A stretch of DNA of 64,000 nt from Candidatus Taylorbacteria bacterium RIFCSPHIGHO2_12_FULL_45_16 (lineage in GTDB: Bacteria; Patescibacteriota; Minisyncoccia; Phycocordibacterales; PALSA-1337). The notes under the pieces are model-generated. The model had not been told where the DNA came from. It did no database searches and saw only the letters and a program-made list of their open reading frames with translations. Made by a program: the position numbers and the translations under genes. The DNA lies in assembly GCA_001821055.1 (NCBI GenBank), contig MHRT01000001.1:27868-91867 (forward strand), given 5' to 3'. Below, one piece after another: positions 2,014 to 34,009 of this stretch; the stretch's first letter is position 1; each line of letters begins with the position of its first letter.

Positions 2014-3360
2014 CTATAACATAGTTCTTACTTGGGTTATCTCTTGCGACAGTAATTGGTTAGTTTTTATTTCTTCACGCATTTTTTCGTATGAGTGAAT
2101 AACTGTCGTGTGGTCTCTTCCACCCAACTTTTCCCCAATTGACGGAAAAGAAATACCAAAATCTTCCCTTAATATATACATAACTACTTGACGAGGTCTC
2201 ACTACCTCCTTGCGTCTAGTTTTGTTGTATATACTTTCTTCGTCTATATTATAAAACTCAGAAACTATTTTCACCACATCCTTAACCGACACCATCTTTT
2301 TTGGTTTTAAGTTGTTTTTGAGAATATTGCGAATCTCGTTGAGGTTCAACTCTTTGTTTTTTAGTTGTATTTGGCAGGCAATAATATTGATTATACCCTC
2401 AATTTCACGGATATTGTCGTTGATTGATGTCGCGATACACTCAACCACCTCATCAGAAAGAGTTATTTTGTGTGGCCGGCACTTACTACGCACAATCATC
2501 ACTCGAGATTCTTGGTCGGGTTCCGGAATATCAACAATCATTCCCATGGAGAATCGGCCACGCAGGCGGTCTTCAAGGCCGGGGATGGTGTTGGGATGTT
2601 TATCTCCAGAAAAGACCAATTGGCGAGCAGTGTCATAGAATGTATTGAAGAAATGGAAAAGTTCCTCTTGAAACTTTTCTTTGTTCGCGAAAAATTGGAT
2701 ATCATCCATGATAATGACGTCATATTTACGGTATTTGTCTTTAAAAGCTTGAACCTTTCCCTCTTGAATAGCGGAAAACAATTCTGAACCAAAACGCTCA
2801 GATGTTAAATAAAATATTTTTTTATCGGGATGAAGCTTTTTTATCTCATTTCCCACAGCTTGAATTATGTGTGTTTTGCCACGACCAGTTTGTCCATAAA
2901 TGAAGAGAGGGTTGTATACTTGGCCCGGACTCTTTACAACCATTTGTGAAGCGGCGTGAGCCAACTCATTAAAAGGTCCCACCACAAGGCTCTCAAAAGT
3001 GTATCTAGGATTTAAGTTGTCTTCCTTGTTGATGTAGAAATCCTGTAACGGCATGGCGATAGTCGGAGCCTGAGACTGTTCTTTTCGTGTATTTTGGCCA
3101 CTTTTACCATCTTCTCGCACAATGACATATTCAAGCGCTCGTACATGCTCATTCATCTGCCTTAAAATGCGTAAAATTGAACTGTGGAACTTTTTTTGGA
3201 GCCATTCGTGGGTAAATGAGTTGGGAACACCGAGGTATATGGTACCTTCATCTTCACGCAGAATGCGGATATCTTTGAACCAGGTAGAAAAATTTGCTTG
3301 GGATACCGCACTTTCAATTTCTATTAGGGCAGTTTGCCACATTTTGCTGTGATCGTTCAT
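2014..3360 (-). CDS. dnaA: Chromosomal replication initiator DnaA
   Basis: The product carries a Walker A GQTGRGKTHI and the VDDIQF box. Its C-terminal DNA-binding domain (EKLGGRDHTTVIHSYEKM) matches the DnaA signature, and the length is 448 aa. Confidence 0.95.
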   Translation of the reverse strand: MNDHSKMWQTALIEIESAVSQANFSTWFKDIRILREDEGTIYLGVPNSFTHEWLQKKFHSSILRILRQMNEHVRALEYVIVREDGKSGQNTRKEQSQAPTIAMPLQDFYINKEDNLNPRYTFESLVVGPFNELAHAASQMVVKSPGQVYNPLFIYGQTGRGKTHIIQAVGNEIKKLHPDKKIFYLTSERFGSELFSAIQEGKVQAFKDKYRKYDVIIMDDIQFFANKEKFQEELFHFFNTFYDTARQLVFSGDKHPNTIPGLEDRLRGRFSMGMIVDIPEPDQESRVMIVRSKCRPHKITLSDEVVECIATSINDNIREIEGIINIIACQIQLKNKELNLNEIRNILKNNLKPKKMVSVKDVVKIVSEFYNIDEESIYNKTRRKEVVRPRQVVMYILREDFGISFPSIGEKLGGRDHTTVIHSYEKMREEIKTNQLLSQEITQVRTML

Positions 3361-3524: not shown

Positions 3525-3659
3525 ATGTCATTCACATACAAACCAAATAAACGCAAGCGCGCCAAGTCGCACGGATTTCGTGTTCGAATGAAAACAACCG
3601 CTGGACGAAAAACACTTGCGCGCCGTCGCTCAAAAGGCCGCAAGCGTGTTGCTGTCTAA
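3525..3659 (+). CDS. rpmH: 50S ribosomal protein L34
   Basis: The translation [44 protein letters not shown] (44 aa) is a classic L34. It is missing from the ORF track because it is shorter than 60 aa. Confidence 0.95.
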
Positions 3660-3672
3660 TTATAATTTCAAT

Positions 3673-4008
3673 ATGCTCTCTCGCTCCCGAAGACTTTCCA
3701 CGGAACAACTAGACTCTGTCATGAAAAAAGGAAAAATATCCCACTCTTCCCTTTTTTTGATGAGGGTATTTAGCGGACAGACAGATACACGGATAGCGGC
3801 CATTGCCCCAAAGAAGACAATCAAAATGTCTACAACTCGCAACGCCGTTCGTCGAAAAGTTTATAACGCAACCAAAACACTTATAAGAGAAATAATTCCC
3901 GGTACACACATCGCACTGTTCGCCAAACAGGCGACGACAAACGCAAAACTGGTCGATATAGAAAACAACATTAAAACTCTCTTTGTGAAAGCTGGGCTTT
4001 TAGGGTAA
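3673..4008 (+). CDS. rnpA: Ribonuclease P protein component
   Basis: This small basic protein follows rpmH, the canonical rpmH-rnpA-yidC order. I placed the start at the first ATG after the rpmH stop, because the track start at 3616 overlaps rpmH. Confidence 0.85.
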   Translation: MLSRSRRLSTEQLDSVMKKGKISHSSLFLMRVFSGQTDTRIAAIAPKKTIKMSTTRNAVRRKVYNATKTLIREIIPGTHIALFAKQATTNAKLVDIENNIKTLFVKAGLLG

Positions 4009-4825: not shown

Positions 4826-6151
4826 AACCAGATCCAGCGACCATAAAGACAGGTCGTTTTTGTTCATAAAGATAAGAAAACTATCTTTTTCGTCCAAACC
4901 GAGATTGAAAGCGTCAATCACACGGTCTGAGGTATCCACAATTGAAGAGACAAGATCAATTTCTCCGGTAATGGCGTTTATTCCCCAAATTTTGTCAACA
5001 AATGAAACTCTGCCAACGTACCAATCGTCCGGGTATGTGCCAGCAATGGGTTGTGAGGGTGCGGCGCAATAGACCATTTCTTTGTAGAAGTTGCCCCAGA
5101 CGCATTTGTCAGCCAAGGTGCGGACGATGGCATCAATCCCCTTCCCTTCGGAAATATTGAAAATACTGGAAATAATATTATTGGCATTGCCGGCCATTGA
5201 TAAAAATACACGCTTGGCGTCGGTGCTTACTTTTGTGCTTAATCCCGGTAGGGGACCAAGTATTTTTTTCCAAATGCCAGTTTTTGGGTCAATAAAATAT
5301 AGAAAACCACTCGAATCGGCGGCGCCTTTTGTAGTAATGGCAATCACATTTTCTGACGGCCACTCAACATTAACTTGGGTTATGGGCGTGGAAAATATTT
5401 TGACCACACTGGACCCGTCAAATTTGGCTGTATAGCCCGAGCCAGCACCGTTTTCGTTTATAAGAAAGAATATACGATCTCTCTTTGGTGAACTTGCGTA
5501 AGCGATAATATTTTCCGGTAAACTCTTGCCTTTTAGTTCGTATGGTGTGAGAGTGGCACCAGTTGTTTGGGAGACCGGTGATGTAGTGCTCGTGGCAATT
5601 TTTGGCACGATTCGGGCCTTTAGCTCAGCGTACACACCACCCGAGGTTCCACCTCGGTCAAAACCATCACCATCATCAAGTCCGAAGGCGATAAATCCAG
5701 TCAGATTCTTGTTCCAGGAGCTTTCGTACAATTTCGGCACGACCGTGTTTGATAACGTTACTATATCCAAGGTATTTCCACGCGCTTCATACACATTTCC
5801 TCTACCTCTATCAACCCAGCGGATAGCCGTTGTCGTGCTGGCTGGCTTGGCATTTACCGCCCCGGTAGTACTGGCGCCATATCCACCCGCCGGAGTATTG
5901 CTCAAAAGTCGTAGGGTAGGAATTTTGAGCTGTGTGCCAGGAGTTGCCGAGGTGGAACCTCGGTTATCACCCGGGACAGTTCCCTCTGTCCCCGTCACAA
6001 GACCTCCCCCAGGCCTATTGATTGGAACGAAGCCAGATTGAGGTGTCTCTGGTTCAAGTACAACATCAGTTCCTACACGCATGAAAAAATACCAGTAAGC
6101 CACGCCGGCTATAATGAGGAGGATGAAGAGTGTGAGGAGGAGTTTTTTCAT
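4811..6151 (-). CDS. Secreted or membrane-anchored hypothetical protein, first gene of the envelope cluster
   Basis: The product has an N-terminal TM/signal (MKKLLLTLFILLIIAGVAYWYF) and is Gly/Thr-rich. It contains two copies of the 17-nt palindrome, encoding NRGSTSA and DRGGTSG. Confidence 0.6.
   Translation of the reverse strand: MKKLLLTLFILLIIAGVAYWYFFMRVGTDVVLEPETPQSGFVPINRPGGGLVTGTEGTVPGDNRGSTSATPGTQLKIPTLRLLSNTPAGGYGASTTGAVNAKPASTTTAIRWVDRGRGNVYEARGNTLDIVTLSNTVVPKLYESSWNKNLTGFIAFGLDDGDGFDRGGTSGGVYAELKARIVPKIATSTTSPVSQTTGATLTPYELKGKSLPENIIAYASSPKRDRIFFLINENGAGSGYTAKFDGSSVVKIFSTPITQVNVEWPSENVIAITTKGAADSSGFLYFIDPKTGIWKKILGPLPGLSTKVSTDAKRVFLSMAGNANNIISSIFNISEGKGIDAIVRTLADKCVWGNFYKEMVYCAAPSQPIAGTYPDDWYVGRVSFVDKIWGINAITGEIDLVSSIVDTSDRVIDAFNLGLDEKDSFLIFMNKNDLSLWSLDLVSINN
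5641..5657. repeat. 17-nt palindromic repeat CCGAGGTTCCACCTCGG, copy 1
   Basis: Exact palindrome (7-bp stem, 3-nt centre), located inside the 4811..6151 CDS. Confidence 0.9.
5947..5963. repeat. 17-nt palindromic repeat CCGAGGTGGAACCTCGG, copy 2
   Basis: Exact copy in the opposite orientation to copy 1, in the same CDS about 290 nt away. Confidence 0.9.
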
Positions 6152-7446
6152 TTGTTATTTTCCCGGACTGAAAACTTTGCATTTATTAAATCTCGACTAT
6201 TTTTTAGTCTTTTTTGCAGATCTTTTTGTAACTCTGGGTCTTTGACATTACCCATCATTTGTTCTGCTGTACCAATATATTTGGCGAGCCTTGATTCAAG
6301 CTCTTTTTTTTCAAAAACCTCGCCGCTTCCCAAGAATACTGCGCTACTACCCACATAGGCAGTATTTTTTGAAAAAAGTCCAAATGTTGTATTTCCGACA
6401 ATTGTATCACTTCTATTTAGCTCAAGAACAGATTCGTAATAATTTGCCTGATCATTAATACCACCGTGATTATAAATTTCTTCCAATTGGTTTATTTTTG
6501 TTAGTTGACTATTTCCATCATCTCTTATTTTGTTTATTACTTCTTTTTGTTTATCAAACACCATATTTATTCCGGATAGATTTTTTGTAGTATCGTTATT
6601 TTCGAGATCAATAAAAGTTTGTTTTGATTGGGCCGCCAGAGACAATTTTGTTGCATTAACTACCAAGTTAGCTTTTTCCTTTGCAATTTCATAATCTTTA
6701 TTTTTTATTTCTGCAACTAATTCGTCAAATTCAGGGTCACCAATCTTATAATTATGTAATTGGGCCAGTAATGCATCTTGTTGTTTTTTTAAATCAGAGA
6801 CAATGGCCTGAGTTTGTTTTTGTTTTTCTGCTATACCTTGAATTTTAACCTGGTATTTTTCTAACTCAGCTGTAAGCTCATTAAAGAAACTACCAATATC
6901 TCCACTCTTACACCCAGGATCACCGATCGATATATCTGGATTATCTGCACATTGTATGATTATCGGCTCAACCAGATTTGTAGGTATAGCCACCAACCTC
7001 GGATCAATAGTCTTCAAAATTAGATATGAACACAAGACTAGTAACAAGCCGGAAATGGCATTTTGTAATTTTTTCAACCCGTCTTTTTTTCCAAGGAATG
7101 AATCAGAACTCATGTACTCAAATCCTCCCCAAACGATCATGAAGACCGCGGCCACGGCGGCCAAGGCAATCAATAAGTTGAACATATACTGGACATATCC
7201 TTGGAAATCAATTTCTCTGATTTGTGATTCAGAGCAAGTAACCGCGGGGATTTTGTTACCGTTTCCGTCTACGGTTTCTGGACTTTCTATACATGGCAAG
7301 GCTTCAAGAAGGGTGTATTTGTCAGGTGTTTGTGCTTGTGCCAGTGAGACATTTATCAAAAGAAATGACATGAATAGTGCGCACACGATAAAGACAAATA
7401 ACCCCCCTATTTTTTTTGTATGTGATGTAGAATTCATAAATAACAT
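6148..7446 (-). CDS. TrbC/VirB2-like pilin-domain protein with a C-terminal coiled-coil extension
   Basis: A signal peptide is followed by a Cys pair and then two hydrophobic helices (FNLLIALAAVAAVFMIVWGGF and ISGLLLVLCSYLIL), which is the conjugative-pilin topology. The C-terminal half is a long coiled coil. Confidence 0.45.
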   Translation of the reverse strand: MLFMNSTSHTKKIGGLFVFIVCALFMSFLLINVSLAQAQTPDKYTLLEALPCIESPETVDGNGNKIPAVTCSESQIREIDFQGYVQYMFNLLIALAAVAAVFMIVWGGFEYMSSDSFLGKKDGLKKLQNAISGLLLVLCSYLILKTIDPRLVAIPTNLVEPIIIQCADNPDISIGDPGCKSGDIGSFFNELTAELEKYQVKIQGIAEKQKQTQAIVSDLKKQQDALLAQLHNYKIGDPEFDELVAEIKNKDYEIAKEKANLVVNATKLSLAAQSKQTFIDLENNDTTKNLSGINMVFDKQKEVINKIRDDGNSQLTKINQLEEIYNHGGINDQANYYESVLELNRSDTIVGNTTFGLFSKNTAYVGSSAVFLGSGEVFEKKELESRLAKYIGTAEQMMGNVKDPELQKDLQKRLKNSRDLINAKFSVRENNK

Positions 7447-9103: not shown

Positions 9104-10948
9104 CTACCCTGCCGCTTCTAACTGTTTCTTTGCATCTTGAATAGCCAGCACTTGAGCAGGGTTTGTCGTGATAATCTGATCCTCGGTATACGATCCGTGT
9201 ATCTTGATGGCCACGTGCTTCAATCCCACGAAGAATATTCCCTCTCCCACGTCAGACTCCAACAAGAGATATTTTTCCTCATCCGTCAGGTTAAATGTTT
9301 TTTGGATATGATCGATCACGCTTGGGGATTGTTTCAAAAGGATTTGTATTGAAGAGTTTGTCACTATCGGCAGGCCATAAGGCGAGTTCAAAAAGTCGTC
9401 AACATCTTGGGTGATTGTGGCCAAGCCGAGGAAATATTTGCGACCGCGCTTTGCCAAACCGAAGAGGAACGAAGCCGTGTCTTCTGATTTCATCATCCAC
9501 CACGCCTCATCTATGACCAACAAACGCTTCTTGAGGTTCTTGCGGATGGCATTCCAGATATAGTGAGTGACTATATACATGGCCACCGGTTTGAGCTCGT
9601 CTTCCATGTCGCGGAGTGAAAAAACCACGAATTTTTTATTTATATCCACATTTGAAGGACGATTGATGAAACCAGCCCAGGTTCCTTTGGTGTATTTACT
9701 CAAGCGCTGAACCAGTGAATCCCCCCCCTCCATTCCGGCCAGAACCAGTTCAAAATCGGACAGAAGTGGCGGTTCAACAGTCCGGAAATCCGATTCGGGA
9801 GTGATATCTTTCAAAGCGTAGGTTTCACTGATGGCCCGATCAACGATGGCATCTTCTTCTTGGGTAAGACCACCCAACATAATTCGGAAAAGACCGACCA
9901 AGTTGATGATATTTGATCGAAGGACGTCAGCAGCTGATTCGTCTTCACGGGCGATCGGCAAGTCAAATGGATTTATATGGTGTTCGGAATTGAGTGAGAT
10001 ATTGAAATATTTCCCTCCCGTGGCTTCGGCCATATACTCGTATTCTTTTTCTGGATCGATAACGATTACATCAGTGTCAAACATCAGCGTGCGCAGAATT
10101 TCCAGCTTGGTGGCATAAGATTTTCCGGCGCCGGCAGTGGCAAAAGTGACCGAATTGTAGTTTTCCAACGAAAATCTATCAAAAAGTACCAGGGACGAAT
10201 TGTGACGATTTATGCCGTACAAGATTCCTTTATCTGAAGTAAGGTCAAATGAGACGAATGGGAAAAGTGATGAAAGGGGCGAAGAGTTGAGCTTGGAATG
10301 CACCCCGAGCTGATCATCGGCGATGGGGATGACGGATTTGAAGCCTTGTTCTTGCTGAAACAGCGCGGGTTTAACGTAAATAAGTTTTGATTCAAGGATT
10401 GATTTGATTTCAGATTCCAACTTATCAAGCTCACCTTCCGAGTCGGCAAACAAAGTGATATAAACACCGACATCAAAAAGGTGTTCCTGCGCCTGCATCA
10501 GTTGATCACGGAGCTGTTCCAGATCTTGATAAGCCGTATCCAATGCCGGATCACGGACCAGCCCCTTGTCTTCCCTGCGAGAAATCTGGCTTTGGACTTC
10601 GGCGACTTTCTTTTGGAAATGGCGGAGGATTTTTGCCGTTTCGACGGGATGTATGAATATTGAAATATTAAAAATCTTGTCTAGATTGATGATAGGGGCA
10701 AACCAGCTTTCGTCAAGGAAGCGTGGATATGAGATTACAAAGAGAGTTCGGCCTATTTTTTCTCCCAAATTGAGATCCTTTGGGCTAATTTTTAGAGCTG
10801 ACGGAGAAATAACATCTTTCAATTCCAAAACGCCGGCTTGATAGATCTCTTCAGGTAAAATAGAAACAATCGGTGATTGCTCATCTTTTCGTCCAAATAA
10901 TTTGTTTAAGAATGACATGTTGATTTTGTGTTGGTTCTGCGTATTCAT
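9104..10948 (-). CDS. VirB4/TrbE/TraC-like conjugation ATPase, C-terminal ATPase part (split gene)
   Basis: The product has a Walker A TAGAGKSY and a Walker B LLVIDEAWWMM. I placed the start at the ATG at 10946-10948 (MNTQ...). The track start, a GTG at 10984, falls inside a hairpin. Confidence 0.8.
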   Translation of the reverse strand: MNTQNQHKINMSFLNKLFGRKDEQSPIVSILPEEIYQAGVLELKDVISPSALKISPKDLNLGEKIGRTLFVISYPRFLDESWFAPIINLDKIFNISIFIHPVETAKILRHFQKKVAEVQSQISRREDKGLVRDPALDTAYQDLEQLRDQLMQAQEHLFDVGVYITLFADSEGELDKLESEIKSILESKLIYVKPALFQQEQGFKSVIPIADDQLGVHSKLNSSPLSSLFPFVSFDLTSDKGILYGINRHNSSLVLFDRFSLENYNSVTFATAGAGKSYATKLEILRTLMFDTDVIVIDPEKEYEYMAEATGGKYFNISLNSEHHINPFDLPIAREDESAADVLRSNIINLVGLFRIMLGGLTQEEDAIVDRAISETYALKDITPESDFRTVEPPLLSDFELVLAGMEGGDSLVQRLSKYTKGTWAGFINRPSNVDINKKFVVFSLRDMEDELKPVAMYIVTHYIWNAIRKNLKKRLLVIDEAWWMMKSEDTASFLFGLAKRGRKYFLGLATITQDVDDFLNSPYGLPIVTNSSIQILLKQSPSVIDHIQKTFNLTDEEKYLLLESDVGEGIFFVGLKHVAIKIHGSYTEDQIITTNPAQVLAIQDAKKQLEAAG

Positions 10949-10954
10949 GTTGTC

Positions 10955-11026
10955 ATTCCGGCGAAGGCCGGAATCCAGAATCACAAACTAAGTGTTAGTA
11001 ATTCTGGACCCCTGCCTTCGCAGGGG
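10955..11026. repeat. 72-nt element of three consecutive hairpins at the VirB4 split site
   Basis: The three hairpins are ATTCCGGC-GAAG-GCCGGAAT, CCAGAAT-N19-ATTCTGG and CCCCTGC-CTTC-GCAGGGG. The element contains the in-frame TGA at 11033-35 and a TAG. Confidence 0.7.
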
Positions 11027-11032
11027 TGACAA

Positions 11033-11671
11033 TCAGGTGATCTGTATCGGTTTCTCCGTTTCTCCTGGATTGAAGAGTTTGTAGAACAATTCTACCACTT
11101 CTTCGGTACCAAGTTCCGCCGCTCGAACCCCACAACGCACCAAACCTTGCTCTACAACAGCCACCCTTTGCTCGAGTTGGCTTCTGTACTCTTGGAATTG
11201 CGTGTCGGCCGTAGCAGTTTTGTCTGTGGCGCTCTTTTTGCCTCCAAACATGCTAGAAAGTGGATTTTTACCGCCGATGATTGGCGGATCGTATGGTATA
11301 ACCACAAAGAAACTTTTGGACATGATGTTGGTGCTTTCGACGAATGTTTTGATGAATTCTATGTATTCGCGAACCTGTATTTTCATGAGCTCGGTGGTTT
11401 GTTCTTTGTACCTATCCTCAAGAAGGGCGATATATGGTCTGATATCAAGTTTTTTTGATTGGACGAAGATTTGTATGGAAAAATCAAGCGAGTTCACGAA
11501 ATTCTGGAATTGCATCAAAATGGAACTTTGTTCATCTTGGGATTTGAGGGCGAAGTTGAGGGAAGATGCCAAAATGATGGCACGCATGCCTCCGTTTTTC
11601 AAAATGATTACGCCGTCGCGGATTTCTTGAATAGGAATGAAGTCTTGAGTTGTTGATTGTTTTGGAGCCAT
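11033..11671 (-). CDS. VirB4-like N-terminal domain (split gene, N-terminal part)
   Basis: The N-terminus DFIPIQEIRDGVIILKNGGMRAIILASSLNFALKSQDEQ follows the VirB4 N-domain pattern. This ORF is in the same frame as the downstream ATPase ORF, separated from it by two stop codons. Confidence 0.65.
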   Translation of the reverse strand: MAPKQSTTQDFIPIQEIRDGVIILKNGGMRAIILASSLNFALKSQDEQSSILMQFQNFVNSLDFSIQIFVQSKKLDIRPYIALLEDRYKEQTTELMKIQVREYIEFIKTFVESTNIMSKSFFVVIPYDPPIIGGKNPLSSMFGGKKSATDKTATADTQFQEYRSQLEQRVAVVEQGLVRCGVRAAELGTEEVVELFYKLFNPGETEKPIQIT

Positions 11672-12108
11672 TATTTTTGGTTTTTATTTGAATACATGCT
11701 CTCTTTTATATCCAGACTCCATGTCAGGTCCTTCAGTTTGCTGTCGGAAATTTTCGGCACCATGACGGAAGCGTAATTTTCGGCGTCTTTGACGGCCGTG
11801 GCGGTATTTTGCGGGCTTTGTTTTTCGGCTTTTCTCCAGATGTAAAGTTTACCACCAAGATAGTATTTGAAAGCTGATTCAACGACATGAACAAATGGTT
11901 TGTTATTTACTTTGTAGAAAGCAAAAGCGGCGGATACGGCCATGATGAGGATAATAGGCACGATGGCGAGGGTTATGCTGTTCAGGAACACATACACCAT
12001 GAAAGAAAGTCCTCCTCCGCCAGCAAGATAAATGAACTGCTTCAAGGTAAGCGGTCCGAATATTTTGTCTTCAACCTCAATGAATTGGGGAACCTGGAAT
12101 CGCATCAC
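11671..12108 (-). CDS. PrgI/VirB3-like small membrane protein
   Basis: The N-terminus FQVPQFIEVEDKIFGPLTLKQFIY is followed by two TM helices, the PrgI-family pattern. It overlaps the start of the VirB4 N-terminal ORF. Confidence 0.55.
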   Translation of the reverse strand: MMRFQVPQFIEVEDKIFGPLTLKQFIYLAGGGGLSFMVYVFLNSITLAIVPIILIMAVSAAFAFYKVNNKPFVHVVESAFKYYLGGKLYIWRKAEKQSPQNTATAVKDAENYASVMVPKISDSKLKDLTWSLDIKESMYSNKNQK

Positions 12109-16785: not shown

Positions 16786-17676
16786 TTATTTGATTATAGA
16801 AAAAACTATGGCTGGCTCTTGAGATGAAAATTGCATGTCTTGCTGTGCGAATACAAATTTTAGATCTAGGAGTGCACTTCTTAGCCGACCAACGGATTGC
16901 TCGTAGAGTGCCATTGCAACCATTCCTTGAATTGGGTCGCTAAATACTTTACTCATTCCATTGGAAACGAATGACATAGCACTGACAGCATTGATCAATT
17001 CAACATGATGCGGGGCTAGGTTTTTGGGAGTTCTAGTAGCAAGCAATTGCGCTAACAATGTGTCATATGAGACTGTGACATCTTCTATTTTTTTGGCGGC
17101 GAATTTGTCATTCTGTTCGAGCGCTTGATTTGCGATTGAGGCGGCGTCTTCTCGTGGCGTATATGTCAAAATTAACCTGCCAATGTTGTTTGCATAGGCT
17201 CGCTCGGCCGATGCGTCTGTTTCTGTCGACAATACTATTTCACGAACATCATATGAACGTGGCAATGGCGCCGCCGATACGACATTTTCTGTGGTTTGGT
17301 CAATAAGCGCTTTTATTGCTTCGGGATTTTCGGATAGATTGTTCTGCTTGAGAAATAAATACTGTTCAAAAAATTTCTTGCCGAACTGGCCGGTGACGGT
17401 TTCCGGTTCAACCGGTTCATTGGAAGTCACGGCGGTGATATCCGATGATTTGTTCTCGTTGATTTTTTGGGTCAAAAATTGTTCTTTCCAATCATTGGAA
17501 TTCGTCTCGGAAACTAGCTCTGTGGGCGTAGCACTGACCACCCCGTTCGGAGCGTTATTTATGGCCGTGTTATTCCACAATGAATCGCCGTACGCGGCAT
17601 ATCCAGCGACTCCAACTCCCAGAATACATATTATGAAAATGATAGCCGTCTGTTTGTGCCGGTAAGATAGGGACAT
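16786..17676 (-). CDS. Membrane-anchored hypothetical protein
   Basis: The product has an N-terminal TM helix. It is the last gene of the cluster. Confidence 0.5.
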   Translation of the reverse strand: MSLSYRHKQTAIIFIICILGVGVAGYAAYGDSLWNNTAINNAPNGVVSATPTELVSETNSNDWKEQFLTQKINENKSSDITAVTSNEPVEPETVTGQFGKKFFEQYLFLKQNNLSENPEAIKALIDQTTENVVSAAPLPRSYDVREIVLSTETDASAERAYANNIGRLILTYTPREDAASIANQALEQNDKFAAKKIEDVTVSYDTLLAQLLATRTPKNLAPHHVELINAVSAMSFVSNGMSKVFSDPIQGMVAMALYEQSVGRLRSALLDLKFVFAQQDMQFSSQEPAIVFSIIK

Positions 17677-19144: not shown

Positions 19145-21109
19145 CTAAAAATCAATAAATAACGCTTTTGCTCCAGTTGGTTTTTCCGGAGGAGCTTGTT
19201 CTTCTATCAAATCTTGTCCAATGTCAGAGATAAATTCCGAAGGGGTATTTACTCTTTGCGCCCCATAGACTGTGCGAATCAGGGTATGACTCAAATGTAC
19301 CTTGTTTCGAGCGCGCGTCAATGCCACGTAGAATAGGCGTCGCTCTTCCTCGGCCTCCGCTGAGCTAATTCCAGCATCATCAAGGTGTTTGAAAGGAAAG
19401 AGGTCCTGCTCCAATCCGGCGATGAAAACTTGGTCAAATTCAAGGCCTTTTGAGGCGTGGACAGTCATGAGTTTTACTGCATCCCGATCCTTTACCAGAT
19501 CGTCCTGGTCGCTGGCAAGCGCGGCATTTTCAAGAAATTTCTCGATGCCAGGGAAAACAAAGTCCGACCTTAAGGTCGGACTTTGTTTTTCCTCATCATA
19601 CTGCGCCGCGACGGTCACCAATTCCCTGATGTTAAGCAGGCGTTCTTCATCCTCCGCGTCGCCACTCATAAGTAATTGTTCCATTCCAGTTTCTTTGATG
19701 ACGAATTTTACCACTTCTGATGGTTTCTTTTGCCGGATTTCCAGTTGGATATCATCAAGGAGTTTCCAAAAACCATCAATTTTGATTTTCATGGTCGGCG
19801 GCAGCAGTTCCGGTCTTTCAGACATGATCTTGGCAACCGTCGCTTTGCCTATTCCACGTGCTGGTACATTGATGATTCGGCCGACATCACCCCAAGATTC
19901 CCTGTTCAAAGCTGCGCGAATATACGACAGAACATCCTTGATCTCTTTCCGCTCGAAGAATCTCACGCCGACTAGTTGATAGGGGATGTTTTTCTTAATG
20001 AATGCTTCTTCAATGGCCCGTGATTGAAAATTCGCGCGATATAGGACCGCGATATTCCGTGGCGGTATCCCTTTTTCAATCAAATCACGCGCAGTGTCGG
20101 CGATATTTCGCGCCTCATCAAGTTCCGTATACGAAGCATTAAGTCCAATTTTTTCCCCATCAATGTTGTCAGTGTACAGTGTTTTCTTTTTTCGCAACAA
20201 ATTCTTCTCGATTACGCTATTTGCCGCGGCCAGGATGGTTTTTGTCGAACGATAATTTTTTTCCAGAGCAATGATGGCTGTTTCGGGATAATCTTTCTCA
20301 AAATTCAAGATATTCTCGATTGTTGCCCCGCGCCAACTGTAAATATTCTGATCCACGTCGCCGACCACGCAAATATTTTTGTGCGTTCCGGCCAATAATT
20401 TTGTGATTACATACTGAACCTTATTTGTATCCTGATATTCGTCTACGTGGATATATTTCCAGATGTTTTGATAATGTTTTCGAAGGGGTTCATTTTTGGC
20501 AAGCAGTGCGACAGTTTCTGAGAGGAGGTCATCAAAATCCAAAGCCTTTTCTTTTGTCAAAATTATCTCATATTTTTCCCAAATTTGAGCTGCCAATTCC
20601 TCCATGTAACTTTTTGTCGCATCAAAATACTCGAGTCGACTGATATTATCTCCCTTGGCTCGCGAAATCATGTTGAGTATTGTTCCAGGATCGAATTGTT
20701 TTGGGTCAATGGAACACTCTTGCATGGCTTGTTTTATCGCTCGACGAGAGTCGGAACGGTCGAAAATAGTGAAATGTTTGGTCAGGCCAAGTATAGCCGC
20801 GTTTTCTCGAATAATATGCACACCCAAAGCGTGAAAGGTACTCACAAAAGGACGCTCTCGTATTGAGATAGGTAGATTCAGACTCACGTCTTCGGTGAGC
20901 AGGTTCTCGATTCGGTCCCGCATTTCTTTTGCCGCTTTGTTGGTGAAGGTTATAGCCAAAATATTGGATGGGGATACGCCTTTTCTGATCAAATTGAGAA
21001 TACGATAAGTAATAACCTTGGTTTTTCCCGATCCTGCCCCAGCGACGATCAAAACTGGTCCTTCTAGGGTATTGACTGCCTGTTGCTGAGCTTTGTTGAG
21101 GGTTGTCAT
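19145..21109 (-). CDS. uvrD: ATP-dependent DNA helicase UvrD/PcrA family
   Basis: The product carries the Q-motif, a Walker A AGAGSGKT, and helicase motifs conserved through to the C-terminus. Confidence 0.9.
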   Translation of the reverse strand: MTTLNKAQQQAVNTLEGPVLIVAGAGSGKTKVITYRILNLIRKGVSPSNILAITFTNKAAKEMRDRIENLLTEDVSLNLPISIRERPFVSTFHALGVHIIRENAAILGLTKHFTIFDRSDSRRAIKQAMQECSIDPKQFDPGTILNMISRAKGDNISRLEYFDATKSYMEELAAQIWEKYEIILTKEKALDFDDLLSETVALLAKNEPLRKHYQNIWKYIHVDEYQDTNKVQYVITKLLAGTHKNICVVGDVDQNIYSWRGATIENILNFEKDYPETAIIALEKNYRSTKTILAAANSVIEKNLLRKKKTLYTDNIDGEKIGLNASYTELDEARNIADTARDLIEKGIPPRNIAVLYRANFQSRAIEEAFIKKNIPYQLVGVRFFERKEIKDVLSYIRAALNRESWGDVGRIINVPARGIGKATVAKIMSERPELLPPTMKIKIDGFWKLLDDIQLEIRQKKPSEVVKFVIKETGMEQLLMSGDAEDEERLLNIRELVTVAAQYDEEKQSPTLRSDFVFPGIEKFLENAALASDQDDLVKDRDAVKLMTVHASKGLEFDQVFIAGLEQDLFPFKHLDDAGISSAEAEEERRLFYVALTRARNKVHLSHTLIRTVYGAQRVNTPSEFISDIGQDLIEEQAPPEKPTGAKALFIDF

Positions 21110-33423: not shown

Positions 33424-34009
33424 CGTTGTGGTTGAGCCGTAATATGTAAAATTCGGGAAAATCTGGTGTAAAGAAAAGCCGCGTTAAGCAGCAATTTCAG
33501 ATGGAAAAAGTGTCAACGCGGCTACTAGTGAAGTCGCGAAGAATGAAAGAGCTTGGGTCCACAGACCCGGCAGATTCAAATGGTGAATCTGGTGCGTCCT
33601 GATGATTCCTAAGTTGACGGTGTGCACTGTATCTTAAAGAAAGTGCTCTCCCAAAGGAGGCGTAATTGTGTTTGAGACAAGTACACCGTCATATTCCTAG
33701 CAACTATTGGCCGCAAAAATTTCTTCGCGCTTCTAAGTGTGAAGCCTACCCTGAGTTTTAAGGATCAAATGTTTGTTTTGATCGCAGGAAAATGATACTA
33801 AAACTTATTCTGATATTCCCATTACACAAACTCCCCAGAAATTTTTCGTATCATTTTTCTGCGATCACCTCGGATAACAAACGAGTCTACAAATATTGTA
33901 TGTCCTTTATAAGTTTCTGTAAAGGACATAATTGTGGATAACCAGGTCTTTGAGAAATACATATAGGACAAGGTATTTTGCCGGACTAAATGTCCTTCAA
34001 CACTCTGTT
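33424..34009. other. ORF-free, hairpin-dense 590-bp region (candidate structured ncRNA or element remnant)
   Basis: The region has no ORF longer than 60 aa. It carries a 9-bp hairpin at 33477-33523, a 20-bp inverted repeat at 33779-33798 and 33848-33867 (one G-U wobble), and a 10-bp hairpin at 33900-33929. Confidence 0.4.

Follow-up and report, generated by a model that had tools for sequence, protein, structure and literature searches.

The VirB4 of the 64-kb stretch of DNA analysed here (hereafter the window) is very probably an ordinary two-gene VirB4, as found across Paceibacteria, whose spacer has received an inverted doublet of SRM-type hairpin repeats and a 31-nt tail, the doublet being carried along as a passenger. 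The element would be an added copy of a known and widespread family of hairpin repeats, and we consider the finding largely ordinary.

Two genes for one VirB4 in Paceibacteria

The two ORFs that flank the hairpin block (Table 1) jointly make up one complete VirB4, consisting of a TraC-like N-domain and an ATPase. The product of the N-domain ORF is a standalone protein of 212 aa, ending at a TGA stop at 11035-11033, and matches positions 2-172 of 792 of VirB4_CagE and positions 1-112 of 752 of CD1110 (NCBIfam), as well as the N-terminal part of the TrbE profile. The ATPase ORF in turn matches CD1110 at positions 185-733 of 752 (3e-109). A search of the N-domain against the local Pfam copy gave no match, its assignment to PF26593 (TraC-like) coming from precomputed annotations only, and a PDB sequence search with it returned no relevant match. 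The halves are collinear with one VirB4, as a fused homologue of 797 aa (P0177) spans both. Their identification as two halves of VirB4 by an earlier, sequence-only reading is thus borne out by the profile matches and the fused homologue. In the window, the two domains are found on two genes and not on a single polypeptide of about 800 aa.

Table 1. Features at and around the VirB4 gene junction (positions in the window)
Feature	Position	Strand	Evidence
PrgI-family gene directly upstream of the N-domain gene	11671..12108	minus	ORF list, Pfam
VirB4 N-terminal (TraC-like, PF26593) domain gene	11033..11671	minus	ORF and translation, NCBIfam, precomputed Pfam, homologues
Inverted doublet of SRM/NTS-type hairpin repeats, 83 nt	10950..11032	.	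inverted-repeat detection, RNA and DNA folds
SRM arm A, TGTCACCCCTGCGAAGGCAGGGGTCCAG	11004..11031	minus (forward)	sequence, hairpin scan, DNA fold
SRM arm B, TGTCATTCCGGCGAAGGCCGGAATCCAG	10951..10978	plus (forward)	exact match to published SRM degenerate motif
Non-conserved 31-nt tail from the doublet to the conserved ATPase start	10919..10949	minus	sequence, relatives' junctions, public gene call
VirB4 ATPase half gene (P-loop_TraG / AAA_10)	9104..10918	minus	Pfam, NCBIfam CD1110, start from relatives

Where the ATPase begins determines the length of the spacer. Its conserved start, placed by 78 relatives, is the ATG at 10918-10916 (MSFLNKLF...), which yields a protein of 604 aa, and the public gene call likewise has 604 aa. 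The mechanical ORF start is a GTG at 10984, which leaves the 48-nt gap with two stops (TGA, TAG) between same-frame ORFs of the earlier description. The read-through is ...PIQIT*LSPLRRQGSRITNT*FVILDSGLRRNDNMNTQ..., in which the in-frame stops are the N-domain's own TGA and one TAG. The ATG at 10948-10946, which had been taken for the start of the second ORF, lies in frame within the tail, one base past the foot of the hairpin. Starting there would add 10 residues (MNTQNQHKIN) that have no counterpart at the junctions of relatives. Because the conserved start is the ATG at 10918-10916, the true spacer between the N-domain and ATPase genes is 114 nt. On the other side of the N-domain gene, the end coordinate of the PrgI ORF, 11671, is also that of the first nucleotide in the start codon of the N-domain. 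Most relatives space the two genes by -4 to +9 nt here, and the abutment reflects the tight coupling that is normal for this operon.

A standalone N-domain of about 213 aa is the rule in Paceibacteria/Parcubacteria. The best 120 homologues of the N-domain all measure 210-235 aa, the typical one being a standalone protein of about 213 aa, and only one of its best 150 cluster representatives is fused, the other 149 falling short of full length. The N-domain protein of the window is present in identical form in 45 index blocks (assemblies). The N-domain and ATPase genes lie at most 12 nt apart in 54 of 78 related loci, with an ATGA overlap in 14 of these. The two reading frames coincide in only 19 of the 78 loci and differ in the other 59; the shared frame in the window is therefore a coincidence. 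The split into two genes predates the hairpin element.

But could the element still have split what was one VirB4 gene, or could a bypass (recoding, hopping or intron-like removal) still yield one polypeptide? Such a scenario can draw on same-frame ORFs that together equal a full VirB4, on the existence of a fused 797-aa homologue and on a hairpin that brings the stop close to the next ATG. However, nearly all relatives have two genes that meet at the same boundary, without a hairpin there, which is the very finding that the sequence-only reading had named as refuting its split gene. The proposed recoding element fares no better, given the rarity of a shared frame and the 14 ATGA overlaps. Moreover, where about 16 residues had been expected to align across the gap in an intact VirB4, the roughly 16 junction codons of the window align to nothing, the fused homologue P0177 included. 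Rfam gave only generic, sub-threshold matches to long hairpins (miRNA precursors, PK-repZ and WsnRNA46, the latter with 26 bits versus a cut-off of 65), which we treated as chance. We thus regard a split or bypassed single gene as almost certainly wrong. In Paceibacteria, VirB4 is a conserved enzyme encoded by two genes, neither a pseudogene nor recoded, and recognizing this averts a wrong annotation.

The hairpin block and its repeat arms

The structure at the junction is far beyond chance. The block, which begins directly after the stop codon of the N-domain, forms one imperfect palindrome whose 39-nt arms are 79% complementary according to inverted-repeat detection, and no short-range inverted repeat in the window is longer. 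A TTGTCA/TGACAA stem closes it. Inside, hairpin 1 (ACCCCTGC-GAAG-GCAGGGGT, 11027-11008, minus strand, 8 bp) is followed by a central hairpin (CCAGAAT-19 nt-ATTCTGG, 11007-10975, 7 bp) and hairpin 3 (ATTCCGGC-CTTC-GCCGGAAT, 10974-10955, 8 bp). The three back-to-back hairpins seen earlier from the sequence are therefore real, although the third stem has 8 bp and not 7, and the block is larger than first described. As single-stranded DNA, the block folds into these three hairpins closed by the TTGTCA/TGACAA stem (-28.4 kcal/mol, z about -8.9). The minimum-energy fold of the RNA is a single long hairpin of -53 kcal/mol (z = -7.7), and none of 200 shuffles was as stable. The same doublet architecture recurs in four other loci (L032, L047, L058 and L205). 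A scan of 10700-11400 found no intrinsic terminator, the hairpin being followed by CAUGAAUACG and not by a U-tract, and a promoter scan found no sigma-70 consensus promoter in the junction.

The doublet consists of two 28-nt hairpin repeats in inverted orientation, both of the NTS/SRM type, whose consensus in relatives, TGTCATTCCCGCGAAAGCGGGAATCCAG, differs from the Neisseria NTS CGTCATTCCCGCGMAVGCGGGAATCYRG in the first base only. Such repeats are bound and cut, solely as single-stranded DNA, by SsnA, a small GIY-YIG nuclease of the Ssn family (cd10448), whose genes they often flank. For SsnA, the GTC 5' of the palindrome is critical for cleavage and the C directly 3' for binding, and the nuclease does not act on RNA (Chenal et al. 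2025, Nat Commun; PMC11893778). Both arms in the window read TGTC-(8-bp stem, GAAG loop)-CCAG and hence carry the GTC 5' of the palindrome and the C 3' of it. Arm B is the sole match in the 64 kb to the published SRM motif, HGTCWYN(0-2)YYVSBRHN(0-5)WNVSBRGN(0-2)RNCYNB (PMC11893778), with 0.14 matches expected from Markov simulations. Arm A falls outside this motif because its stem carries a C-to-T variant, matched by a compensating change; it is a diverged variant, and the near-identical TGTCACCCCTGCGAAAGCAGGGGTCCAG occurs among the copies from the fetched loci. In N. meningitidis, SsnA activity was lost upon changes to the palindrome that preserved the hairpin (PMC11893778), so divergent arms may not be substrates of a given Ssn. 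A relaxed search of the window for GTC plus a hairpin gave 14 matches, with duplicate stem/loop solutions counted, whereas simulations gave 5.3 on average and at most 11; the additional matches are few and unlike SRMs. Across 93 distinct copies of the repeat, compensatory changes are found in 7 of the 8 stem pairs and 97.7% of cells are paired, a level that none of 500 shuffles reached. Judging from this pattern of substitutions, the SRM hairpin is under selection. A literature search for the repeat-encoded peptides PAFAGMT, SRFRGND and SFPRKRES found no papers.

Origin and possible effects of the insertion

The window contains only one SRM doublet, and relatives have 2-6 half-sites within 6.6 kb. 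Further copies of the repeat sit at other junctions in L045, L047, L058, L061 and L064. The repeat is further carried by at least 120 metagenome contigs, with GC contents of 30-70%, either singly or as an inward-facing doublet; some 30 of the doublets measure 59-118 nt. Sequence conservation ends sharply at the 28-nt boundary of the repeat. By its distribution, the repeat forms a dispersed family. The earlier suggestion of a small, structured, MITE-like insertion has thus held up, in that the junction carries an insertion of a dispersed, MITE-like repeat. How often did such insertions reach this site? The closest relatives of every SRM-bearing locus have no SRM at the N-domain/ATPase junction, which suggests that the junction insertions are independent. 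We also considered one shared ancestral insertion for the SRMs of the window, L032, L047, L058 and L066, and rejected it, as each has closer SRM-free relatives.

Elsewhere, the repeat is found around small GIY-YIG genes. In three metagenome loci (L103, L174 and L169), two SRMs enclose a gene for a 96-aa GIY-YIG protein. Homologues of this protein lie in Wolfebacteria and Parcubacteria contigs, flanked by SRM or SRM-like hairpins, and one of them is followed by a 73-nt doublet similar to that of the window. In total, small GIY-YIG genes flanked by the repeat or by SRM-like hairpins occur in five fetched loci, two of them from Parcubacteria. Neither the window nor the 80 VirB4 loci L001-L080 contain an Ssn-like GIY-YIG gene. 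Long repeat pairs in L118, L183 and L184 just bracket ordinary genes.

Small size, terminal inverted repeats and multiple copies would also suit a classical MITE descended from some insertion sequence, and the doublet of hairpins has the architecture of REPINs, which would be moved by a RAYT (an IS200/IS605-like tyrosine transposase). However, none of the five junction copies has a target-site duplication, despite the inverted repeats. When ORFs lying no more than 400 nt from the repeat were clustered over 120 contigs, no recurrent transposase and no RAYT-like cluster emerged; apart from the GIY-YIG pair, all clusters were of housekeeping genes, and the 96-aa GIY-YIG protein is the only ORF family found inside an inverted repeat pair. 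An origin as a MITE or REPIN of this kind is accordingly very unlikely.

With the doublet read as an SRM passenger, the course of events was probably as follows. The N-domain and ATPase genes, which normally abut or overlap, would have received the 83-nt doublet and the 31-nt tail in a spacer of a few nucleotides. The doublet has the inward-facing arrangement known from the surroundings of small GIY-YIG (Ssn-like) genes, with no gene inside. As single-stranded DNA, its arms would fold into 8-bp hairpins with a GAAG loop, the GTC 5' and the C 3', the form that is bound by Ssn and cut a few bases upstream. Binding and cutting of this hairpin form have been shown in Neisseria and Wolbachia, and we infer them for the window. 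The repeat family may have spread, or may be maintained, via nuclease-dependent events on single-stranded DNA.

For the operon, the insert would mean that a spacer of at most 12 nt in most relatives is extended to 114 nt, that the stop/start overlap is lost and that a very stable, non-terminator RNA hairpin now lies between the two cistrons. It is tempting to speculate that the foot of the helix, by bringing the TGA stop and the next ATG near each other, keeps some translational coupling, and a regulatory effect on ATPase expression is possible, though equally speculative. Might the hairpin even be a selected cis-regulatory RNA, which sets the ratio of N-domain to ATPase or the stability or processing of the mRNA, with the SRM as mere raw material? 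Long hairpins of unrelated sequence are found at the same junction in about 15 of the 78 relatives and cluster in close relatives (the window with L001 and L004, L058 with L061, L066 with L064), and in the window the RNA fold is very stable and its helix has the stop codon at one foot and an ATG at the other. Yet these junction hairpins share neither sequence nor size nor position relative to the start codon, the same element families occur at further sites of these genomes, the PrgI/N-domain junction among them, most relatives have no spacer at all, a terminator-like tail is missing, and SsnA is inactive on RNA. Overall, we find a selected regulatory RNA unlikely.

A far-reaching extension, to which we likewise assign little probability, would be that Ssn/SRM is active in Patescibacteria and that SRMs, along with other, unnamed hairpin families, repeatedly colonise translationally coupled junctions in the operons for T4SS and type IV pili, which deal with single-stranded DNA. 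There, they would not be mere passengers. On DNA, they would serve as marks for Ssn to cut these loci while DNA is taken up or transferred, as NTS do around Neisseria pilus genes; on the mRNA, they would fold out and leave stop and start adjacent, so that the VirB4 halves are co-translated at a reset ratio.

Relation to known systems

The gene order of the window, with PrgI upstream, is that of the two-gene VirB4 of monoderm conjugation systems (TrsD/TraD and a VirB4-like ATPase), although the match of the N-domain to the TrsD/TraD family (NF041427; 2.5e-6, positions 11-142 of 201) is weak and below the family cut-off. A literature search for TrsD, TrsE and VirB4 turned up no paper that equates TrsD with the VirB4 N-domain, and a recent survey of Patescibacteria T4SS makes no mention of a two-gene VirB4. 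When T4SS of Patescibacteria are counted or modelled, a VirB4 made of a TraC-like protein and an ATPase should be considered.

Among repeats, the REPINs and BIMEs of Proteobacteria consist of two inverted short palindromic repeats with a short spacer, which form a long hairpin or a three-hairpin cruciform between genes. REPINs carry a 5' motif of the GTAG type and are associated with RAYT tyrosine transposases. The doublet architecture of the window is alike; the associated genes differ, being GIY-YIG genes here.

The NTS/SRM type of repeat contains the core of the Neisseria dRS3, defined as ATTCCC-N8-GGGAAT. The arms of the window, ATTCCGGCGAAGGCCGGAAT and ACCCCTGCGAAGGCAGGGGT, depart from this strict definition with ATTCCG...CGGAAT and ACCCCT...AGGGGT, whereas relatives' copies in L032, L047 and L058 conform to it. 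N. gonorrhoeae sequence near pilE has GTCATTCCCGCGAAAGCGGGAATCTAG ... CTGGATTCCCACTTTCGTGGGAATGAC. With dRS3 and the Neisseria intergenic mosaic elements (NIMEs), the window shares the palindrome form, the intergenic site and inverted copies that bracket short variable segments, but it has neither arrays nor an association with phage integration.

The closest counterpart is the Ssn/NTS/SRM system (PMC11893778). The window differs from it in its low copy number, with one doublet per 64 kb as opposed to hundreds of copies in Neisseria, in having no ssn gene and in the arm that lies outside the published motif; Patescibacteria go unmentioned in the main text of that study. Common to both are an oriented 28-nt hairpin repeat, single or in inverted pairs, and inverted copies around genes for small GIY-YIG proteins with a single domain and about 95 aa, Parcubacteria included. 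The NTS/SRM repeat and the small GIY-YIG genes flanked by it thus reach the candidate phyla radiation with a 28-nt sequence almost as in Neisseria, which bears on how Ssn/SRM spread between phyla.

Two adjacent VirB4 genes

All relevant genes in the window lie on the minus strand, with a PrgI-family gene directly upstream of the N-domain ORF. The latter, publicly annotated as Pfam PF26593 (TraC-like), matches VirB4-family profiles in their N-terminal part only (VirB4_CagE, 2-172 of 792; TrbE, 53-203 of 852; CD1110, 1-112 of 752) and also matches the TrsD/TraD family; its product has a 100% identical counterpart in Candidatus Taylorbacteria, RIFCSPHIGHO2_02_FULL. The downstream ORF contains P-loop_TraG and AAA_10 domains and covers positions 185-733 of 752 of the CD1110-type VirB4 profile (3e-109). 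Together with the alignment of both ORFs along P0177, a 797-aa fusion protein, this bears out the sequence-only reading that they are two halves of one VirB4: residues 5-215 of P0177 align to the N-domain and residues 225-796 to the ATPase, and with both halves in order, the window genes are collinear with one VirB4. The ORFs also share a frame, as had been noted, since read-through translation from the N-domain ORF runs as ...PIQIT*LSPLRRQGSRITNT*FVILDSGLRRNDNMNTQNQHKINMSFLNKLF... into the ATPase ORF. The ATPase start conserved in relatives corresponds to the ATG at 10918-10916 (MSFLNKLF...), and the public gene call likewise has 604 aa; the ten extra residues from the ATG at 10948 have no counterpart at the relatives' junctions.

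The further proposal that the element split a single VirB4 gene does not hold. An exhaustive search yielded 2472 relatives of the N-domain protein (50%-identity cluster representatives), and among the best 150 of these only P0177 is a full-length fusion; the best 120 homologues are all 210-235 aa long and 80-94% identical. In 78 of the 80 related genomic loci that we retrieved, both genes could be located. They are adjacent, with at most 12 nt between N-domain stop and ATPase start in 54 of the 78 (an ATGA overlap in 14 of these, a 1-nt gap in 13), and have a common frame in only 19. Judged by gene arrangement in relatives, VirB4 is thus normally encoded as two genes, the arrangement that the sequence-only reading itself had named as grounds for rejecting a split, and the shared frame in the window is a coincidence. 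For a T4SS component, the standalone N-domain protein is unusually well conserved, with 80-94% identity over more than 100 clusters that represent many lineages of Paceibacteria and Parcubacteria.

An inverted SRM/NTS repeat at the junction

The three hairpins of the sequence-only reading are all present, except that the CTTC-loop stem has 8 bp, not 7, and the structured block is real but larger than proposed. It spans 10950-11032, an imperfect palindrome whose 39-nt arms are 79% complementary; no other short-range inverted repeat in the window is as long. The predicted RNA fold of the block is a single long hairpin (-53 kcal/mol, z = -7.7), a stability that none of 200 shuffles reached; in the predicted ssDNA fold a TTGTCA/TGACAA stem closes the three hairpins named above (-28.4 kcal/mol, z = -8.9). 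The window holds two more long inverted repeats (see table).

Features at the VirB4 junction, in related loci and around GIY-YIG genes
Feature	Locus	Position	Strand	Description
N-domain ORF	window	11033-11671	minus	212 aa; TGA stop at 11035-11033
ATPase ORF	window	ends 9104	minus	600-plus aa; same frame as N-domain ORF
Hairpin 1	window	11027-11008	minus	8 bp, GAAG loop
Hairpin 2	window	11007-10975	minus	7 bp, 19-nt loop
Hairpin 3	window	10974-10955	minus	8 bp, CTTC loop
Arm A	window	11031-11004	minus	28-nt half-site
Arm B	window	10951-10978	plus	28-nt half-site
Inverted repeat	window	33779-33867		28-nt arms, 89% complementary, 33 nt apart
Inverted repeat	window	19550-19593		22-nt arms, 95% complementary, directly adjacent
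Tandem-unit hairpin	L001	3640-3710
Tandem-unit hairpin	L004	3068-3145
Tandem-unit hairpin	L064	3631-3745		CGAAATA x5, -54 kcal/mol
Tandem-unit hairpin	L022			PrgI/N-domain junction
SRM-bracketed GIY-YIG ORF	L103	2356-2782
SRM-bracketed GIY-YIG ORF	L174	7657-8085

When the core sequence was searched for in the literature, a Neisseria gonorrhoeae pilE-region sequence came up and led on to the 28-nt NTS, CGTCATTCCCGCGMAVGCGGGAATCYRG, which includes the dRS3 repeat, and to the broader Ssn-related motif (SRM), both described by Chenal et al. 2025 (PMC11893778). The hairpin must be ssDNA for SsnA, a 94-aa GIY-YIG nuclease, to bind it, and cleavage falls a few bases upstream; the critical bases are the GTC on the 5' side of the palindrome and the C on its 3' side, and the repeats typically flank ssnA genes in an IS-like arrangement (PMC11893778). 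Arm B matches the SRM motif exactly and is its only match in 64 kb (0.14 expected); arm A differs by three compensated stem pairs and is missed by the SRM regular expression. The GTC and the C are kept in both arms. Compensatory changes affect seven of the eight stem pairs among the 93 distinct copies collected, with 97.7% of cells paired; none of 500 shuffles reached this level. The element is a further member of the known SRM/NTS family rather than a new kind of repeat, in a phylum apparently new as host for the family.

A weak SRM-like hairpin at 16947-16975 on the minus strand, TGTCATTCGTTTCCAATGGAATGAGTAAAG, is without the 3' C and is probably due to chance. Spurious ORFs over SRM copies give the recurrent peptides SFPRKRES, IPAFAGMT and LDSRFRGND, as in L118 (a 67% GC contig, 5560-6850) and at 10950-11032, where the variant reads LDSGLRRND; a full-text literature search found no paper on such peptides.

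Copies at other junctions and in metagenomes

The sequence-only reading was right that the junction holds a small, structured insertion, and the insert is dispersed. The N-domain/ATPase spacer reaches at least 25 nt in 15 of the 78 relatives, mostly as long hairpins, and four of these 15 carry the window's module, TTGTCATTCCCGCGAAAGCGGGAATCCAG ... CTGGATTCCCGCTTTCGCGGGAATGACAA (L032, L047, L058 and, as a half element, L066). Further copies of the 28-nt half-site stand at other junctions (L045, L047, L058, L061, L064) and, by pattern scan, in at least 120 metagenome contigs. Among the contigs listed, whose GC ranges from 30% to 70%, about 120 half-sites are solo and 39 are paired and face inward (about 30 of them 59-118 nt in length), and conservation ends sharply at the 28-nt borders.

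Nothing obvious sets the VirB4 junction apart. Most relatives have an equally tight PrgI/N-domain junction, with spacers of at least 25 nt in 9 of 78 and hairpin inserts of at least 70 nt in 7, often of the same family as those at the other junction in the same genome; it carries an SRM in L047, L058 and L061, and in L055 both junctions hold an identical element. The junction SRM insertions appear independent, as the closest relatives of each SRM-bearing locus have no junction SRM. These relatives often hold a different hairpin in that position, which fits lineages generally rich in hairpin repeats.

Other hairpins were seen in these loci. The L055 element (~2900-3000 and 3628-3724) is about 95 nt long, reads CACATGAACACCGTAACTCGTAAAAAG...CTAGTTACGAGTTACTAGGTTCCAATTACAC with a CACATGA 5' flank at both copies, and represents a second mobile hairpin family, so far unnamed. 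Some junction hairpins, unrelated in sequence to SRM, have arms of tandem 6-7-nt units, each arm mirroring the other (see table). A long hairpin of about 165 nt in L032 (5644-5808; GGCAGTAATCAGAAGTCTGGCATTGTTCTTTTGGC...), with a weak miRNA-precursor-like match, suggests that these genomes hold more families of hairpin repeats.

Possible action and the link to GIY-YIG genes

At the DNA level, each arm could, folded as a hairpin in ssDNA, be a target of Ssn-type nucleases, judging from the biochemistry of the Neisseria and Wolbachia enzymes. In the operon, the insert lengthens the spacer to 114 nt and does away with the usual stop/start proximity; the two cistrons are now separated by a stable hairpin that has no U-tract, and a scan of the junction found neither a terminator nor a promoter consensus. 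The 5' foot of the helix directly adjoins the TGA stop, and one base past its 3' foot comes an in-frame ATG, so that folding may, we speculate, keep termination and re-initiation close.

We clustered ORFs within 400 nt of the repeats in the 120 contigs listed, which gave no recurrent transposase. They did yield two 96-aa GIY-YIG ORFs, both enclosed by inverted SRMs, with a third, disrupted copy in L169; there the SRM-bracketed Ssn-like gene (441-822) has its frame split by an SRM-like hairpin, CCTGTCCCTGCGAAGGCAGGGATAA. Neither the window nor the 80 VirB4 loci contain an Ssn-like GIY-YIG gene. The 96-aa protein has homologues in, among others, Candidatus Wolfebacteria and Candidatus Parcubacteria, and two SRM-like hairpins stand on either side of the gene in the Wolfebacteria contigs. 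This gene lies within a type IV pilus locus (L202-L204, 2340-3400) with T2SSF, prepilin peptidase and N_methyl pilins, and a further SRM sits inside the prepilin peptidase ORF on the minus strand (2342-2369 in L202 and L203, 2332-2359 in L204); in Neisseria, too, NTS repeats cluster around pilus genes. In a Parcubacteria contig, the GIY-YIG gene is followed by a 73-nt SRM doublet with the same architecture as the window element. The window doublet has no gene inside, in contrast to the repeats that bracket GIY-YIG genes, and shares their inward-facing arrangement.
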